DNA of 64,000 bases from a virus (lineage: Duplodnaviria > Caudoviricetes): positions 96,001-160,000 of the IMG/VR virus record IMGVR_UViG_3300044297_000138; one strand, written 5' to 3'. Below the pieces are notes generated by a model. That model did no database searches. It had not been told where the DNA came from and saw only the letters and a program-made list of their open reading frames with translations. This document shows positions 2,478 to 45,004 of the stretch, one piece after another; positions within the stretch are counted from its first letter, which is position 1, and every line of letters starts with the position of its first letter. The position numbers and the translations under genes were made by a program.

Positions 2478-2746
2478 TGCGTGATTCAGATGTAAAAAGA
2501 GAGATTGAACGAATGATACAACATCGTTCAAACACTAACAATCCTATTGATTTTCCTATCTCGCCAGCAAATATGCGAGCCAGATGTGAAGCATTGATTA
2601 CAGCGATGGTCGGAGCAGATTTGGCATCTAAATGGTGGAACGGACCCAACCAAGCATTTGAAGGGCACACACCCGAGGAGATTTATAGTGTGGCACCTTC
2701 GGCGGTGTATGCTTATCTAATGAAGTCAGCAGAAGGAGAATGGTAA
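2474..2746 (+). CDS. Xre/MbcA/ParS antitoxin C-terminal-like (DUF2384-like) protein
   Basis: ASKWWNGPNQAFEGHTPEEI...VYAYL fits the W-x3-PN-x-A-F/L-x-G-x-TP signature. Confidence 0.55.
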   Translation: MMRDSDVKREIERMIQHRSNTNNPIDFPISPANMRARCEALITAMVGADLASKWWNGPNQAFEGHTPEEIYSVAPSAVYAYLMKSAEGEW

Positions 2747-3057
2747 TGATTGACTACTATGAAGCACTGAAAGAAATGCACCAAGGTAATGTGGTCAAAT
2801 ATGTTGGTACTGTGAATGGCAATGTAATGAGCAACAATGGTGCCAGTTTCTGTATGTGTCGTGGTTGTATCTTTCTATTTGATAATGGAGTAATCAAATG
2901 GGACAAGTTAGGCTACATGGTTTACGATCCAGATTTTCGTTATGAACTAACCGGCGAAACTGTAAATCCGAGGGCGTGGAAACCAGAAAAGAAAACGGAC
3001 CGTAAAGAGATTAAATCCAAGTTAGGTTATAGTAGAATAGGATTGGATAATGTTTAG
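2740..3057 (+). CDS. Hypothetical protein
   Basis: AGGAG RBS; translationally coupled on both sides. Confidence 0.7.
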   Translation: MVMIDYYEALKEMHQGNVVKYVGTVNGNVMSNNGASFCMCRGCIFLFDNGVIKWDKLGYMVYDPDFRYELTGETVNPRAWKPEKKTDRKEIKSKLGYSRIGLDNV

Positions 3058-4429
3058 AGATGTAAAAGAAATGACAATTGAAGAACTTGAGAGAGAACTT
3101 CATGCACTTGAGTTGTTTCAGAATGAAATTGGTAAAGTTGGTGTAAACTCAATGTTATCTAAGAGTGTTGACACATCATTTTTGCAACCAATGCAATGCA
3201 CAATAACACCCAATGGTCAACTATTCAGGATTGACCGACAAGGTTTCTTACCTAAGATGATGGAAGAAATGTATGAGGATCGTAAGAAGTTTAAGAAGAT
3301 GATGTTGAAAGCACAACAGGAGTATGAGAATGAAAAAGATGAATCCAAAAAATATGATATTGAAAAACGAATCGCCAGATACAACAACCTACAGCTCGCC
3401 AAGAAAGTTTCTCTCAATTCTGCTTATGGTGCTCTTGGTTCTCAGTATTTCAGATTTTATGATTTGCGTATGGCTCTTGGTGTTACTACTGCTGGCCAAC
3501 TATCTATTCGGTGGATAGAAGCCAAGATAAATGATTACTTGAACAAACTATTGAAAACGAATGAAGATTATGTTATCGCCTCAGACACAGATTCAATTTA
3601 TCTCAAGCTTGGTCCACTTGTTGACAAAGTGTATGGTGCAGGACAAGATAAATCTGTCTCTACAAGAATTGACAAACAAAAGGTTATTGATTTCATGGAT
3701 CGTGTATGCGAAGATAAAATACAACCGTATATTGATAAAAGTTATCAAGAGCTTGCTAATTATGTTAATGCGTATGCACAGAAAATGCAAATGAAGCGAG
3801 AAGGCCTATCAGACAAAGGTGTATGGACTGCCAAGAAAAGATACATTCTAAATGTATATAATAACGAAGGTGTTCAGTATGCCGAACCTCATATGAAAGT
3901 GATGGGTCTAGAAATGGTGAAGTCATCTACACCATCGGCAATCCGTGAAAAGATGAAAGAAACAATTCAGTTGATGATGACTGGCACAGAAGAAGAGGTG
4001 CAACAGTTTATTGCCAAGTTTAGAGAAGAATTTAAATCATTGCCACCCGAAGAAATTTCTTTTCCAAGAGGTCTGAATGGGCTAAATACTTATTCCGATT
4101 CGGTGACTTTATATAAAAAAGGAACTCCAATTCATGTTCGTGGTGCAATCGTCTACAATCACCACCTCAAACAACTTGGTTTAGAAAAGAAATACCAAAA
4201 GATTCAAGAAGGTGAAAAGTTAAAGTTTACCTATTTGAAAATGCCAAATCATTTCAAAGAAGATGTAATTTCGTTTCCTGCCAGAATTCCCAAAGAATTT
4301 GGGCTTGACGAATATATTGATTATGACTTACAATTTGATAAGGCGTTTCTAGAACCCATCAGGATTATTTTGGATTGTATGAATTGGAAAGCCGAAAAAT
4401 CAAATTCATTAGAAGATTTTTTTAGTTGA
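3050..4429 (+). CDS. 43: Family B DNA polymerase gp43, C-terminal half (fingers, palm, thumb; gp43B-like)
   Basis: Motif B KVSLNSAYG, motif C ASDTDSIY, KKRY, C-terminal clamp-binding SLEDFFS. Confidence 0.95.
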   Translation: MFRDVKEMTIEELERELHALELFQNEIGKVGVNSMLSKSVDTSFLQPMQCTITPNGQLFRIDRQGFLPKMMEEMYEDRKKFKKMMLKAQQEYENEKDESKKYDIEKRIARYNNLQLAKKVSLNSAYGALGSQYFRFYDLRMALGVTTAGQLSIRWIEAKINDYLNKLLKTNEDYVIASDTDSIYLKLGPLVDKVYGAGQDKSVSTRIDKQKVIDFMDRVCEDKIQPYIDKSYQELANYVNAYAQKMQMKREGLSDKGVWTAKKRYILNVYNNEGVQYAEPHMKVMGLEMVKSSTPSAIREKMKETIQLMMTGTEEEVQQFIAKFREEFKSLPPEEISFPRGLNGLNTYSDSVTLYKKGTPIHVRGAIVYNHHLKQLGLEKKYQKIQEGEKLKFTYLKMPNHFKEDVISFPARIPKEFGLDEYIDYDLQFDKAFLEPIRIILDCMNWKAEKSNSLEDFFS

Positions 4430-40384: not shown

Positions 40385-40674
40385 GTGGAAAATACTATGT
40401 CGTTTGTGGTAATCAGAATGAATTTAATGAGTTTATCAAAAGGAAAGCTTTTGAGTTATTCGGCCAAGGAAATACCTCTATAAGCCTTTCACAATTCGTA
40501 CATGTGGATAGTGTGGAAAAAATTAGAGGAATACACGAACCGACCGGATGGTTCTATGGTACCTGGAAGAATAATCCAAATATTGAAGTTATTATGATTG
40601 CACTTGCAGGTTCTCTTAACGGTATCAGACTACGAAACATTCAGAATCTTTGGAAGGAATACAGAAAAGGATGA
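40381..40674 (+). CDS. Hypothetical protein
   Basis: Coupled ORF. Confidence 0.6.
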   Translation: MSGKYYVVCGNQNEFNEFIKRKAFELFGQGNTSISLSQFVHVDSVEKIRGIHEPTGWFYGTWKNNPNIEVIMIALAGSLNGIRLRNIQNLWKEYRKG

Positions 40675-41270
40675 AAGTATATTTTATTTTAGATTCCGCA
40701 TCCAATGCTGTAAAGGTTGGTAAAGCCAATAACATACAAGAAAGAATGTCAGACCTACAAACTGGCAATCCAAATACATTGAAATTGATCCATCAAATTG
40801 AGTGTGAATCCGAAAAACAAAGTTTTCTATTGGAACAAACATTACATAAAAAATTGCAAGGTATTAGATTAATTGGTGAATGGTTCAGATATGATGAATC
40901 CATCTTTGCAGATTTTTTTGATGATAAATTGAATTTTGAAAGAACAATTAAACGGGAATCACTTGAATGGGAAACTTTGTTTGGTACAGAATCTTTTGGT
41001 TTAAAAGATTTTCCATGTTGTTTCTTTTATCCAAACTTAACTGCACAAATAATGTTAAGTTATGAGGACTCTGTGGGAAAGAGAGTTCCGTTTAGAACAA
41101 TGAAATACCCCACAGATGGCAAACAGATGCTTCTTCCTTATTCCATGGAAAAAGATAAAGTATTCATATCCGATAGAAAACACAAAGAGAACCTAAAATT
41201 GAAAAAATTCCTAAAATCACAGGAAATTCAAAATTCTCAGGTTTCTCCCCTAGAAAAATTTTTAGATTAA
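40671..41270 (+). CDS. GIY-YIG-family (T5orf172/MUG113-like) protein
   Basis: VYFI...VKVG.A....RM..LQTGNP...LE..LH...GEWF. Confidence 0.75.
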   Translation: MKVYFILDSASNAVKVGKANNIQERMSDLQTGNPNTLKLIHQIECESEKQSFLLEQTLHKKLQGIRLIGEWFRYDESIFADFFDDKLNFERTIKRESLEWETLFGTESFGLKDFPCCFFYPNLTAQIMLSYEDSVGKRVPFRTMKYPTDGKQMLLPYSMEKDKVFISDRKHKENLKLKKFLKSQEIQNSQVSPLEKFLD

Positions 41271-41413
41271 CAAAAATCGAAAACCTTGGGCCGGCCCCAG
41301 AAAATAAAAAATAGGAAAAAAGAGTTTGACCTGGTGGAGCTTTTTTAGCTAAGCGGTCACTCCCCATGGCCGGCCCCCTCCAGCCCTAGTCAAAAAGTAT
41401 TACACCAGTAGCC

Positions 41414-41440
41414 AAAAAAAAGGAGGCGCATAGGCCTCCT
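41414..41440 (-). terminator. Rho-independent terminator for the minus-strand block
   Basis: Minus strand reads AGGAGGC-CTATGC-GCCTCCT followed by a run of T. Confidence 0.8.
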
Positions 41441-41485
41441 GAGCAACCGATGAGCCGCCAGCATCCGCTGGTCTTACTGCTTATA

Positions 41486-42130
41486 TCAGGCCGCAACCGC
41501 TATCCGTATAACCTTGGCCATTTTCTTGCCGTGAGCGGGATAACCAATAACCGCTACATCCTTGGAGTAGCAGGCACGGCATGTAAGGCACTTGCCGCCT
41601 TGGTTATATGCCTGGCACACCGTGACACCAGCAGGTGCTGAGGTAGCATCAGGTAAAATGGTGGAGCCATGGACGCCAGGTGTGAAGGTGCCATCCACCG
41701 CATCGCTACTATAACGGACCATGACATTAGGTAAAGCTTGCATGGCTTTAAGCACTGCCTGGAATTTAGGGAATTTATACATCCGGGTGGGAAGCCAGTG
41801 CTTGGTGCCAGGAGTAGCTGTCATAATGGCCAGCATTTTCTCAGCCAATTCCAAGCTATACATATCGCCGGAATCAAACCAGCGGAAATGGCTGTCCTTG
41901 GACAGAGCTTTCACCATATCAGCGGTCCAGCCGTCACGCTGCCAGTCCGCCTTATTATCGGCACGGACAGCTTTCACGGGGCCAAAGTGGTACATGCCGG
42001 TGGTGGCGTAGCAACCAGAGCAAGCGGGAACCAGTGAACCGTCAGCGGCTTTGGAACCAGGGCAGGTTTCGAGAGCTTGCAGGGACCAGCTTTTGGTACC
42101 GAGCTTGGAGGTTTTTGAGAACTTGACCAT
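41486..42130 (-). CDS. Gp88-like phage protein (Cys-containing, radical-SAM-like)
   Basis: TCPGS...CSGCYA, FRWFDSGD, WLPTR, C-terminal C....C..CRAC; AAAGGA RBS. Confidence 0.7.
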   Translation of the reverse strand: MVKFSKTSKLGTKSWSLQALETCPGSKAADGSLVPACSGCYATTGMYHFGPVKAVRADNKADWQRDGWTADMVKALSKDSHFRWFDSGDMYSLELAEKMLAIMTATPGTKHWLPTRMYKFPKFQAVLKAMQALPNVMVRYSSDAVDGTFTPGVHGSTILPDATSAPAGVTVCQAYNQGGKCLTCRACYSKDVAVIGYPAHGKKMAKVIRIAVAA

Positions 42131-42143
42131 GTATTTCCTTTCA

Positions 42144-42182
42144 ACTATGGATGGAGTATACCATAACCAGTGAAAATGGCAA
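42144..42182 (-). repeat. 39-bp repeated early promoter, copy 1 (TTGCCA-16-TATACT, extended -10)
   Basis: Two mismatches versus 42667-42705. Confidence 0.85.
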
Positions 42183-42194
42183 CCTAATACTTTT

Positions 42195-42380
42195 TTATTC
42201 CACCTGGCTCAAGTGACAATCCGAATCCAGATAATCCGGATCATTCTCCACGTATTCCTGTTGGATGAGCTCCACCCAATCCATTGGTACCTCATGCTTG
42301 GCGGTTATCTCAGCAAAGGAAAGCCGGCCGGCTACTAGGTCTTCCTGGATATCCAGGACTAGGTTTGATATTTTGGACAT
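42195..42380 (-). CDS. Small acidic HTH-like protein
   Basis: AGGAG RBS; MSKISNL..DIQE.L....SF.EI......P..WV, similar to the ORF at ~50296-50467. Confidence 0.6.
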   Translation of the reverse strand: MSKISNLVLDIQEDLVAGRLSFAEITAKHEVPMDWVELIQQEYVENDPDYLDSDCHLSQVE

Positions 42381-42391
42381 AATTTTCTCCT

Positions 42392-42649
42392 TTAATTGGT
42401 TTGCTTGGCATCCATCATTTCCGAGAGGATATACTTGGCACGGTTCAAATACTGGCGGATGGTGTTATCAGCCTGTCCGTCAGGGAATGAACCAGCCATT
42501 TCCTGCAGCTCTTGGCAGTCCGAAAGGATACCCATGACCACCATTTCCAGACCGGAGACCCGAGCGGTCAGGCCTTCCATGTATTCCCTGCGGATGCCCT
42601 CGGTGGACATGCCGTAGCATTGCTTTTCAAATTCGGTGATATTAGCCAT
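42392..42649 (-). CDS. Hypothetical early protein
   Basis: GGAG RBS directly downstream of the repeated promoter. Confidence 0.7.
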   Translation of the reverse strand: MANITEFEKQCYGMSTEGIRREYMEGLTARVSGLEMVVMGILSDCQELQEMAGSFPDGQADNTIRQYLNRAKYILSEMMDAKQTN

Positions 42650-42666
42650 AATTGCTCCGTTTGTTG

Positions 42667-42705
42667 ACTATGGAAGGAGTATACCACAACCAGTGAAAAT
42701 GGCAA
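42667..42705 (-). repeat. 39-bp repeated early promoter, copy 2
   Basis: See 42144-42182. Confidence 0.85.
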
Positions 42706-42749
42706 TGGTATACTTTAGTATTCCATCCAGGGGATGGACAATGGCTTGC

Positions 42750-42989
42750 TTAATCCAGGAGGACCATGTAGGCTTTAGGGTTGAACCGGCGGAACCACTC
42801 CACACCGGTGCGGACGGTTTTGTAGTCTCCGAACCGCTCAGCACCCATGGTGATATCATACACCGTAACCTCCAGAGGGGTCAGCCATATGCTCTCACCA
42901 GAAAATGGATTGGTCACCTGTACCGGTTCCGTATCCACAACCACGCCACCCTCGAAGGGAAGCTTGTCAGCACTCATTTTAGCCATTAT
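42750..42989 (-). CDS. Hypothetical early protein
   Basis: GGAG RBS; ends FRRFNPKAYMVLLD. Confidence 0.65.
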   Translation of the reverse strand: MMAKMSADKLPFEGGVVVDTEPVQVTNPFSGESIWLTPLEVTVYDITMGAERFGDYKTVRTGVEWFRRFNPKAYMVLLD

Positions 42990-43061
42990 GGTCTCCAATA
43001 GAAAATGTCCAACACCAACACCAAAGCTGCAGCCGCATATACGGCTGCCAGCACTTTTACC

Positions 43062-43367
43062 TTAAGCTGCAACAGCATGAGCAGCCTCCGCACCTTTATA
43101 CACTACAGCCTTGCTGGGACGCTTGGCGGCTTTGATAGCCTTAGTGCCTACAGGCTTGGCCTGCTTTTCAAGCAACCGCTGCAAGCGAGCCTGAGCACGG
43201 ACGATAGCCTGCTCACGCTTTTCCTGACGGGCGGTGGCACGAGCTGCACGCTCTGCCGATTTAAGGATTTTAGCTTCCACACGGGCTTCCTTATGGAGCT
43301 GGCGGAGCGCCTTGATAATAACAGCCTGATCCTTCAGGCTCATGGCTTTGAATTCATCGGTCAACAT
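43062..43367 (-). CDS. Ala/Lys/Arg-rich basic helical protein
   Basis: AAAGGA RBS; promoter at 43397-43424. Confidence 0.65.
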   Translation of the reverse strand: MLTDEFKAMSLKDQAVIIKALRQLHKEARVEAKILKSAERAARATARQEKREQAIVRAQARLQRLLEKQAKPVGTKAIKAAKRPSKAVVYKGAEAAHAVAA

Positions 43368-43396
43368 AAAATGTCCTTTCGTTTGTTGATGGTTGA

Positions 43397-43500
43397 ATTA
43401 TGCACGAACCAAGGGGAATGGCAATATTAAACTTTTTTCTTACAGGGGGAAAACTGAGAACCTTTGTCTGAATTGCCATGGATACTGGTTCGCTTATAAT
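43397..43500. promoter_or_regulatory. Back-to-back divergent promoters
   Basis: Minus: TTGCCA-16-CATAAT (43424-43397). Plus: TTGCCA-16-TATAAT (43473-43500). Confidence 0.75.
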
Positions 43501-43743
43501 TGGTACCAGATTCGAAGCCAAGCGGGATGCACACGGAGCCTGGCCGTTATATTCGGTCACCATCGGATGAATACTTTTGTTTGCGGGGCACCAGAGGAAA
43601 AGAAACCAAAGAATGGCTCTGTGACCTTCCGTATTCAATCCTGAGTGATCCTGAAAACAAATGGCATCGTTGCCAGAAACTAAGTCGGACTAATACCAAA
43701 GGTCTAACGCTCGGTTGCGCTTCACCATGCGAAATTTGCGAAG

Positions 43744-43804
43744 TTATCCACAGCTTATCCACAGCCATCACTTTTTGACTGTTTTATCCACAAAGTTATG
43801 CACA
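43744..43804 (+). promoter_or_regulatory. Cluster of four DnaA boxes
   Basis: TTATCCACA at 43744, 43755 and 43784; TTATGCACA at 43796; all the same orientation, in non-coding DNA. Confidence 0.85.
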
Positions 43805-43846
43805 GCCTTTGGATCGGTTAAAACTTTTTTACTGGTTTATTCCAAT

Positions 43847-43893
43847 GGAATACTATGGTATACGCTTGCCAATTCTACCAATTATGACATAAT
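43847..43893 (+). promoter_or_regulatory. Early promoter with upstream element
   Basis: GGAATACTATGGTATA-CGC-TTGCCA-16-CATAAT. Confidence 0.75.
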
Positions 43894-43924
43894 CTAACCA
43901 TCAAAACCAACAAGGAATGACGAT

Positions 43925-44098
43925 ATGAAACGAAATGATTACATTGCTCTGATTATAGAGCATATTGTGAACCAAGGTTATAAATCTTCGGATGCTTTTG
44001 TGAACTATATTACTAATGAGTTGGTCAATATGAGTACCGAAGCATTAGCCGATGAATTGGAAGCTTTGGAAATTAATGCTATTGGTCTCAGTATGTAA
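43925..44098 (+). CDS. Small acidic early protein (57 aa)
   Basis: AAGGA RBS after the promoter. Confidence 0.55.
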   Translation: MKRNDYIALIIEHIVNQGYKSSDAFVNYITNELVNMSTEALADELEALEINAIGLSM

Positions 44099-44141
44099 TC
44101 TTTGGTTCTCTATCGTAAAAATGGAGAACTAATTGATTATA

Positions 44142-44169
44142 TTGACATTTTTGTGTTTTTGTGTATAAT
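44142..44169 (+). promoter_or_regulatory. sigma70-type early promoter
   Basis: TTGACA-16-TATAAT with TG extension. Confidence 0.8.
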
Positions 44170-44192
44170 GATTGTATTGAAAGGTTGACAGA

Positions 44193-44444
44193 ATGAATAC
44201 TATTCACTACGGTAAGAAGGAAGAGTTACAAGGTAGATTTTTAATACCTTTTTCTTGCTCTGATATTGTCGGAATACGGACTGAGCTTCGGCCACACGAG
44301 CGGACAGATGCTGAGAATAAAGTATTAGGTACGGTTTCGGATCGTATTACTTTGGCATTACAAGAGCGTGGGTATGAGGTGGTTAGTATTAGTTTTTGGT
44401 CTATGTTGATTTCAGCAGTAAAAAGTGAGGTAAAAAGTGTTTGA
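44193..44444 (+). CDS. Hypothetical early protein
   Basis: AAGG RBS after the promoter. Confidence 0.55.
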   Translation: MNTIHYGKKEELQGRFLIPFSCSDIVGIRTELRPHERTDAENKVLGTVSDRITLALQERGYEVVSISFWSMLISAVKSEVKSV

Positions 44445-44665
44445 GCTTGTAAATATTGACGGATTGTGGAATGTTGTATACAATGGTACGATAGTAGATA
44501 CTTTTGTTTTCAGGCAAGAGGCTGAGGATCACATTGTAGTGCTTAGGTATGAAATGGATCATGCATGGGATAACTTTGGTATGGAATTTGATGAAATGAT
44601 TGAAGTTTGAGTTAATTAGTATTCACTACGATAAGGTGAATACTTTAGTAATCCATGAGGTAAAT

Positions 44666-44714
44666 GGAATACTAAAGCATTCGTCTTGACAAAGCGGATG
44701 GTTTCAGGTAGAAT
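44666..44714 (+). promoter_or_regulatory. Early promoter with upstream element
   Basis: GGAATACTAAAGCATT-CGTC-TTGACA-17-TAGAAT. Confidence 0.75.
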
Positions 44715-44740
44715 TATTGCATTGATTGAAAGGTGAATTT

Positions 44741-45004
44741 ATGCGGAACTCTGACATTGTGGACATGGTTGACGATATGCTGAATGATGAAGGTCCGGTG
44801 CAAATCGGTAACCTGACATTTGACCGCTCGGAAATCGTGCGCCGGTGTGACCCTACGGCTTATCGTATCATGGTCAATGAATACATTGATTCAATGATTG
44901 ATGACCTTAGGTACGACCAAGAGCGTCTGGACCCTGAAACCGATATGGCTGAACATCAGGAAATTCAGGAACGCATTGATGAATTGGAAGGTGCATATCT
45001 ATGA
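44741..45004 (+). CDS. Acidic hypothetical protein
   Basis: DML.D.G.V.IG.L.F..S.I....DP.AYR pattern. Confidence 0.65.
   Translation: MRNSDIVDMVDDMLNDEGPVQIGNLTFDRSEIVRRCDPTAYRIMVNEYIDSMIDDLRYDQERLDPETDMAEHQEIQERIDELEGAYL

Follow-up and report, generated by a model that had tools for sequence, protein, structure and literature searches.

In E. coli, in-vivo binding of DnaA is almost restricted to boxes that are paired at a distance of 2 or 3 bp, and altered spacing abolishes it (PMC11317965); double boxes were present at 15 of 16 ChIP peaks, with purH as an example in which a 7/9 match is paired with a 9/9 match (Stringer, Fitzgerald and Wade, 2024, PMC11317965). The basal unwinding system of bacterial oriC requires DnaA-trios no more than 16 bp from a box (Pelliciari et al., 2021, PMC8287927), and the criteria for such a system are a box with at most two mismatches, often in tandem, three or more trios (NAN) at a distance of 0-16 bp, and an AT-rich region (PMC8287927). 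In phage T4, the origins oriF and oriG require an A+T-rich unwinding element downstream of a promoter that is of the MotA-dependent middle-mode type (Kreuzer and Brister, 2010, PMC3016281), and oriE consists of an early-mode promoter and evenly spaced direct repeats of undefined role, located near a transcriptional divergence (PMC3016281). The untranslated pre-early region of 25 T5-like phages has conserved DnaA-box pairs with 3 bp between the two boxes (bioRxiv 10.1101/866236); according to Davison (2020, bioRxiv 10.1101/866236), where Heusterspreute (1987) is cited for them, such box pairs belong to the T5-like injection-stop (iss) region, and their role in the injection stop has been proposed rather than shown (bioRxiv 10.1101/866236).

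Here we describe an array of DnaA boxes in a distant T4-like myovirus from freshwater metagenomes. The window, i.e., the whole 64-kb stretch of DNA that was analysed and to which positions refer unless stated otherwise, spans positions 96001-160000 in a virus record of 174,535 bp in which no end repeats were found. The preliminary description, which was made from the sequence of the window, had stated that the phage encodes its own replisome, and this was borne out: the DNA polymerase is present in split form, with ~55% identity to cyanomyovirus gp43, and the genome carries further replication genes of the T4 type, namely a gp41-like helicase, a gp59 loader, UvsX and gp32. The two halves of this family-B polymerase (148-1449 and 3050-4429) are separated by ~1.6 kb, with ORFs at 1479-2012 and 2740-3057, and the split may have resulted from the insertion of a mobile element. 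No DnaA homologue was found in the phage genome, and therefore any protein that reads the boxes must be that of the host. Likewise, given that the gp41-like helicase and the gp59 loader are both encoded, the phage can load its helicase without a need for DnaA. Nearly the whole genome is transcribed rightward, and the cumulative GC skew, which had been put forward earlier as a test for an origin, climbs monotonically through the locus with no inflection. The large subunit of RNR was uninformative for placing the phage, blastn found nothing among GenBank phages for 43000-44500, and a literature search for DnaA boxes in T4-like phages, or in lytic ones, yielded Ori-Finder-style predictions at most.

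Direct reading of the sequence confirmed that four DnaA boxes stand in the same orientation as two pairs with 11- and 12-bp periods, as described previously. The nonamer TTATCCACA is found on the plus strand at 43744-43752, 43755-43763 and 43784-43792, and the fourth box, TTATGCACA (43796-43804, plus strand), matches it at 8 of 9 positions and fits the TTATNCACA consensus; the start-to-start distances are 11, 29 and 12 bp. Double box 1 (43744-43763) thus consists of two 9/9 matches separated by the 2-bp gap GC (43753-43754), and double box 2 (43784-43804) of a 9/9 and an 8/9 match separated by the 3-bp gap AAG (43793-43795). Boxes were scored against the common TTATCCACA type, which the DnaA of the host is assumed to prefer, and were counted at up to one mismatch in 5000 block shuffles of the genome that preserved local composition. 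Four co-oriented boxes within 61 bp occurred in 0 of 5000 shuffles, the maximum of three being reached in six of them; the two double boxes observed compare with a shuffle mean of 0.021, and 0 of 5000 shuffles had two. The results showed that the box cluster is real and far beyond chance. All three perfect boxes of the 64-kb window belong to the array, out of six in the whole genome, and the scattered single ones are at about the level expected by chance (mean of 2.1 per shuffled genome). These other three are located at genome positions 4560 (plus strand), 23152 (minus strand) and 172527 (minus strand); one of them is at the switch of strand near 4.7 kb, and another lies between gp59 and gp32. 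A repeat search at the locus found no inverted repeat bracketing the boxes.

The array lies in a gap of 557 bp between annotated genes (43368-43924), which agrees with the gene-free gap of ~550 bp of the preliminary description, but the gap is not empty, as it holds a conserved non-coding element in addition to the boxes. Three sigma-70-type promoters were predicted within the gap. P_L (43397-43424, minus strand; TTGCCA-N16-CATAAT) drives a leftward five-gene GC-rich operon, the first gene of which encodes 101 aa and starts at 43367; P_R1 (43473-43500, plus strand; TTGCCA-N16-TATAAT, 11/12) is back-to-back with P_L; and P_R2 (43866-43893, plus strand; TTGCCA-N16-CATAAT with a TG) heads the first rightward early gene, r57 (43925-44098, plus strand), which encodes 57 aa and has homologues with 57-77% identity in relatives. 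These predictions are credible because TTGMCA-N16-17-TAnAAT sites number 27 genome-wide compared to 0.8 in shuffles (~30-fold), 26 of the 27 being on the plus strand. The boxes had previously been placed at the transcriptional divergence point. The true divergence point, between P_L and P_R1 at 43425-43472, is ~300 bp to their left, and the boxes are 237-297 nt downstream of P_R1, i.e., between the co-directional P_R1 and P_R2, at about -156 to -96 relative to the inferred start of P_R2. An AT-rich tract following the boxes, which had also been reported, is average for this genome: it has 63-70% AT (48th-83rd genome percentile), with 64% AT (52nd percentile) for 43805-43865, and seems AT-rich only by contrast with a GC-rich island on its left.

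The end of the array is followed after 13-15 nt by the operator/promoter unit of P_R2. Motif matching identified two operator-like elements on the plus strand (43820-43862), AAAACTTTTTTACT at 43820 and AATACTATGGTATA at 43849, which are 29 bp apart; the distal element begins 15 nt past the last box and the proximal one is directly next to the P_R2 -35. P_R1 likewise has two such elements upstream (~43428 and ~43457), again with a 29-bp spacing. This class of element adjoins the -35 in 10 of 30 sigma-70 promoters, compared to ~1.5 expected, and eight of those ten are at 43.4-51.5 kb. The motif can be written as GAGAACYTT..G.T / GGAATACT...GTAT and is frequently paired at exactly 29 bp. Other elements beside a -35 are found at 44142, 44686, 46335, 47511 and 51448, and an extra copy is present within the conserved leader at ~43569-43583.

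Alignment with relatives delimited the conserved non-coding element on the plus strand as a stretch of ~235 nt (43507-43741) downstream of P_R1 and up to the first DnaA box. It has 69% DNA identity to the relative L127, is 51% AT and shows no G/C skew. A coding reading of the element was rejected, since its substitutions are without codon periodicity, its indels are of 1, 2, 10, 11 and 13 nt and no frame is open in all copies. A search of 41000-45000, the element included, found no Rfam family. The single-sequence fold had an MFE z-score of -0.04, no better than shuffled sequence, and RNAalifold on four copies gave a weak consensus (-13 kcal/mol, covariation term -1.4); an RNA structure is thus not demonstrated. 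The leader is non-coding and has no intrinsic terminator, and as judged from its sequence the conserved element could be either the leader or RNA of P_R1 or a set of DNA sites. L127/L209, L132/L106 and L207 keep both hexamers of P_R1, the -35 and the -10. The 5' block of the element (ATTCGAAAGC...GGGGTGCACACGGAGCCTGG) is nearly invariant, and L208 (11687-11950) has two tandem copies of this block, each just past a promoter-like site, which suggests that the 5' block is a self-contained unit at the start of the transcript.

The array sits at the right edge of the GC-rich island (41300-43800; 0.47-0.55 GC compared to ~0.33 in the flanks), which has sharp edges and ~51% GC over 2.5 kb in a genome with a mean of 38% GC. 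The island contains genes of 101, 82, 85 and 61 aa, GP88, P_L, P_R1 and the conserved element, and because the same gene set is found in relatives it is not a one-off recent insertion. The operon in the island is the only local one on the minus strand. Further high-GC patches are present at genome positions 46.5-55.5 kb and 88-89 kb, and a T5orf172/GIY-YIG-like (homing-endonuclease-like) protein is encoded just left of the island boundary (40650-41270, plus strand). GP88, the last gene of the leftward operon (41486-42130, minus strand), matches PF17338/DUF7227. Nothing clear was obtained for GP88 from a PDB sequence search or from Foldseek, and Atlas gave GP88's own family only. When its confident AF2 model (pLDDT 82.7) was used in a wide search, the nine best structural matches were all radical-SAM enzymes, with Z scores of 6.1 for lipoyl synthase, 5.6 for PFL-AE, 5.4 for viperin and 5.2 for QueE, all below 8. 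GP88 has invariant cysteines in the pattern C23-x13-C37-x2-C40 and at C172/C181/C184/C187. On the basis of the model, it is a candidate radical-SAM-like early enzyme, and it travels with DnaA-box arrays in many phages.

At least 589 relatives of GP88 were found in IMG/VR, and ten GP88 loci that share the divergent gene arrangement of the window made up the syntenic set; searches with the 101-aa gene and with a 92-aa rightward gene found no related loci. Box clusters were present in the equivalent gap in eight of the ten syntenic relatives, seven of them with the orientation and 11-12 bp phasing of the window and one (L135) inverted. Two large-phage contigs found independently, L207 and L222, have the same order of elements with co-oriented phased boxes, and in L222 the boxes are followed by two operators and then the promoter, as in the window. 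Double box 1 is nearly invariant in L131, L132, L134, L147, L189, L204 and L207, with flanks that cannot be aligned, and the second pair was found in L147, L189, L204, L207 and L222. Downstream of the boxes the alignment shows a conserved operator block and then the TTGCCA -35 of P_R2, which is invariant in the eight aligned relatives; the -10 is conserved, and in most of the eight ~55-63 nt separate the last box from the -35. The conservation that the preliminary description had called for as a check therefore holds for most relatives but not for all. In L127 and in the contigs of runs X5 and X6, the array segment is swapped for three to four ATTGCAC/GTGCAAT repeats with an exact 10-bp period (at 4340-4374 in L127, and in place of window 43735-43817 in the X5/X6 contigs), L140 carries yet other repeats at this position, and the contig of run X4 is a natural variant with pair 1 only. 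Contig cover is low over 43746-43839, which carries no weight as evidence, the runs being made up of contigs. Depending on the sister lineage, there is a single pair, an array of as many as five boxes or a phased repeat of another kind. The array is not indispensable, and its position is a slot for swappable phased arrays, which are predicted to be binding sites.

Across 80 GP88 loci, double boxes were found in 15 (28 double boxes in 709 kb), compared to none for two control motifs, with 27 of these 28 upstream of GP88. The arrays of unrelated smaller phages are located within long non-coding leaders and read toward a promoter and an early operon, and the distance from box to promoter outside the T4-like family is variable (~30-185 nt). 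In L171 and L184, the leader with the array forms the divergence of the terminase/portal block from an operon extending from GP88 as far as a T7 gp4-like primase-helicase. Several unrelated small phages, namely L160 (~2880), L171 (~5500), L178 (~1585), L181 (~1775) and L184 (~5605), have a C-rich motif (CCCCCTCCCCC-like) 10-40 bp upstream of their DnaA-box arrays. In a reverse test, 120 loci were fetched solely by the exact double-box 20-mer; GP88 was encoded in nine of them, and in the eight non-T4-like ones among these nine the boxes lie ~0.5-0.7 kb upstream of GP88 and read toward it. As a means of finding relatives the same 20-mer was dropped, since it is present in more than 120 viral contigs and is too unspecific.

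Given that the boxes are real, conserved and fit the geometry of binding in vivo, it is very probable that host DnaA docks on the array. Three functions had been suggested for it: a host-DnaA-dependent origin for the first round of replication, a datA/DARS-like site acting on host DnaA, and DnaA-dependent control of the flanking early promoters. Control of the early promoters fits the anatomy best, the first-round origin is less likely and not positively supported, and the datA/DARS-like sink is the weakest, with its four boxes all co-oriented, no IHF site beyond chance and close relatives without the array. Our main reading, to which we give a probability of roughly 0.45, is that the array is a docking cassette for host DnaA that gates early transcription. 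Transcription control is favoured because the array lies between tandem early promoters, abuts an operator/promoter unit and comes after a non-coding leader without a terminator, because cassette turnover is typical of regulatory sites and origin-type elements are absent, and because the order of boxes, promoter and early operon is also found in unrelated phages. Soon after infection, host DnaA, mainly in its ATP form, would bind both pairs cooperatively and would set the flow of transcription into the first rightward early operon. It could do so by blocking or pausing RNA polymerase that comes from P_R1, comparable to the roadblock for the asnC transcript; work by Schaefer and Messer from 1988 reportedly described the DnaA/box complex as such a transcriptional roadblock at asnC/mioC. 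Alternatively, DnaA might repress or assist P_R2 together with a binder of the adjacent operators, comparable to the tandem dnaA promoters P1 and P2, between which DnaA boxes lie. Under both mechanisms, the expression of early phage genes would be tied to the replication-initiation state of the host. Against gating by DnaA stand the box-promoter distance, which is not fixed outside the T4-like family and argues against a single mechanism of direct contact with RNA polymerase, and the strong conservation of the leader, which a simple roadblock model does not explain; in addition, swappable phased repeats past an early promoter and near a divergence are also what T4 oriE looks like.

This last point leads to the main, though tentative, alternative, in which the slot would be an early origin of the T4 oriE type: a transcript from P_R1 and/or P_R2 would supply the primer, and the repeats would recruit a DNA-opening or DNA-marking protein, i.e., host DnaA here and another repeat-binder in the sister lineages, before gp59/gp41 takes over. 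The order of early promoter, conserved non-coding stretch and 11-12 bp repeats, ~300 bp from the only local strand switch, is consistent with this, the phased repeats that replace the boxes could act as initiator sites instead, gp59, UvsX, gp32 and gp41 are encoded for priming from an R-loop (RNA-DNA hybrid), and L171 and L184, both small phages, have the array at the head of their primase-helicase operon. However, T4 R-loop origins need no specific downstream sequence (PMC3016281), and the leader here is strongly conserved; the boxes are missing from close relatives and natural variants, and there is neither a G-rich skew that would favour an R-loop nor a change in the monotonic cumulative GC skew. 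DnaA-trios, sought with a strand rule inferred from the E. coli R1/DUE layout, were found at none of the four boxes, and in relatives at 5 of 30 boxes, below the random-position rate of 0.34. An adjacent AT-rich unwinding region of the oriC type was not found, the tract after the boxes being average, and in place of an element of the oriF/oriG type the first 60 nt from P_R1 (+1 to +60) have 42% AT, the 1.3rd genome percentile; the corresponding 60 nt from P_R2 have 68% AT (76th percentile) and run into the gene. A wider form of this origin reading, which we regard as possible but doubtful, is that the slot is an exchangeable initiator-docking module, the early origin of a freshwater T4-like group, with DnaA docking in most lineages and another repeat-binder in the rest. 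It is similarly doubtful that the docked protein opens or marks the DNA where transcripts from P_R1 and P_R2 prime, and that the module is shared horizontally with small podovirus-like phages, in which it stands at the head of the operon with GP88 and the primase-helicase.

That the array serves as a DnaA sink, by which the multiplying phage DNA would titrate or inactivate host DnaA in the manner of datA or recharge it in the manner of DARS, is unlikely. The double boxes are of the high-affinity type, and multiplied by the phage copy number they might bind several hundred DnaA molecules, but each genome has only four, and the three perfect boxes elsewhere are single, scattered and about as many as expected by chance. 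A datA-like locus is a DnaA-box cluster with an essential IHF-binding site, and the sole match to WATCAANNNNTTR with at most one mismatch in 43650-43930 overlaps a box, against a background of 0.8 per 280 bp. The core of DARS has three boxes, including oppositely oriented ones, whereas all four boxes here are co-oriented on the plus strand. A sink would also not require a fixed place beside a promoter unit, and sister lineages are without the array. By analogy with T5, membrane-associated DnaA might instead tether the entering genome, for a pause in injection or for localisation at the membrane; the retention of 3-bp-spaced pairs in all of the T5-like phages mentioned above speaks for this, as does the location of the array in a likewise early, non-coding and compositionally distinct region. 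The inverted repeats and the terminal repeat of T5 are absent here, though, we know of no two-step injection in T4-like phages, and we consider a tether highly improbable.

T4-like phages are the textbook case of independence from host replication initiation, but canonical DnaA boxes are retained at the head of the early programme in this lineage as well as in many aquatic phages unrelated to it. Gating of early transcription by DnaA would allow the phage to read the replication readiness of its host and would amount to a simple sensor of host state in freshwater bacteria that grow slowly. An origin in the slot would, for T4 relatives other than coliphages, be the first that is defined by sequence, and it would depend on the host initiator. 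If the slot proves to be an initiator-docking module, host DnaA would be a widely used initiation factor for lytic phages with complete replisomes. The anatomy gives precise constructs in any case: the two double boxes, the conserved leader, the paired operators, and the variants found in nature that carry a single pair or the other repeat.

When set beside the known systems, the array resembles bacterial oriC in its tandem co-oriented boxes with 2-3 bp gaps, but differs in that the phage loads its own helicase via gp59. P_R1 and P_R2, which might supply a primer transcript as the MotA-dependent middle-mode promoter of T4 oriF/oriG does, are early-type sigma-70 promoters. The resemblance to T4 oriE is one of architecture only, with P_R1, boxes at an 11-12 bp period and the strand switch described above; the oriE iterons are 12-mers unrelated to DnaA boxes. 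With datA and DARS the array shares a DnaA-box cluster outside an origin, and differs from them in having four boxes only. The likeness to the T5 iss region is that of a lytic phage with its own replication genes and with consensus and near-consensus box pairs in an untranslated early region. One pair here has the 3-bp gap of the T5 pairs and the other a 2-bp gap, and T5 has eight boxes in the inverted repeats IRC/IRD inside the terminal repeat, where this phage has four co-oriented boxes with neither kind of repeat; unlike the iss region, the array also abuts a promoter unit and can be replaced by other repeats. The E. coli sites differ in being chromosomal, whereas the present predicted docking sites belong to a lytic T4-like phage, form two pairs and have phage-specific operator-like neighbours. 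Both pairs nevertheless fit the E. coli double boxes, being near-consensus 9-mers in the same orientation with gaps of 2 and 3 bp, and, like the DnaA-regulated promoters of E. coli, the array is located in a promoter/5' region, between tandem promoters and inside a predicted transcribed leader.
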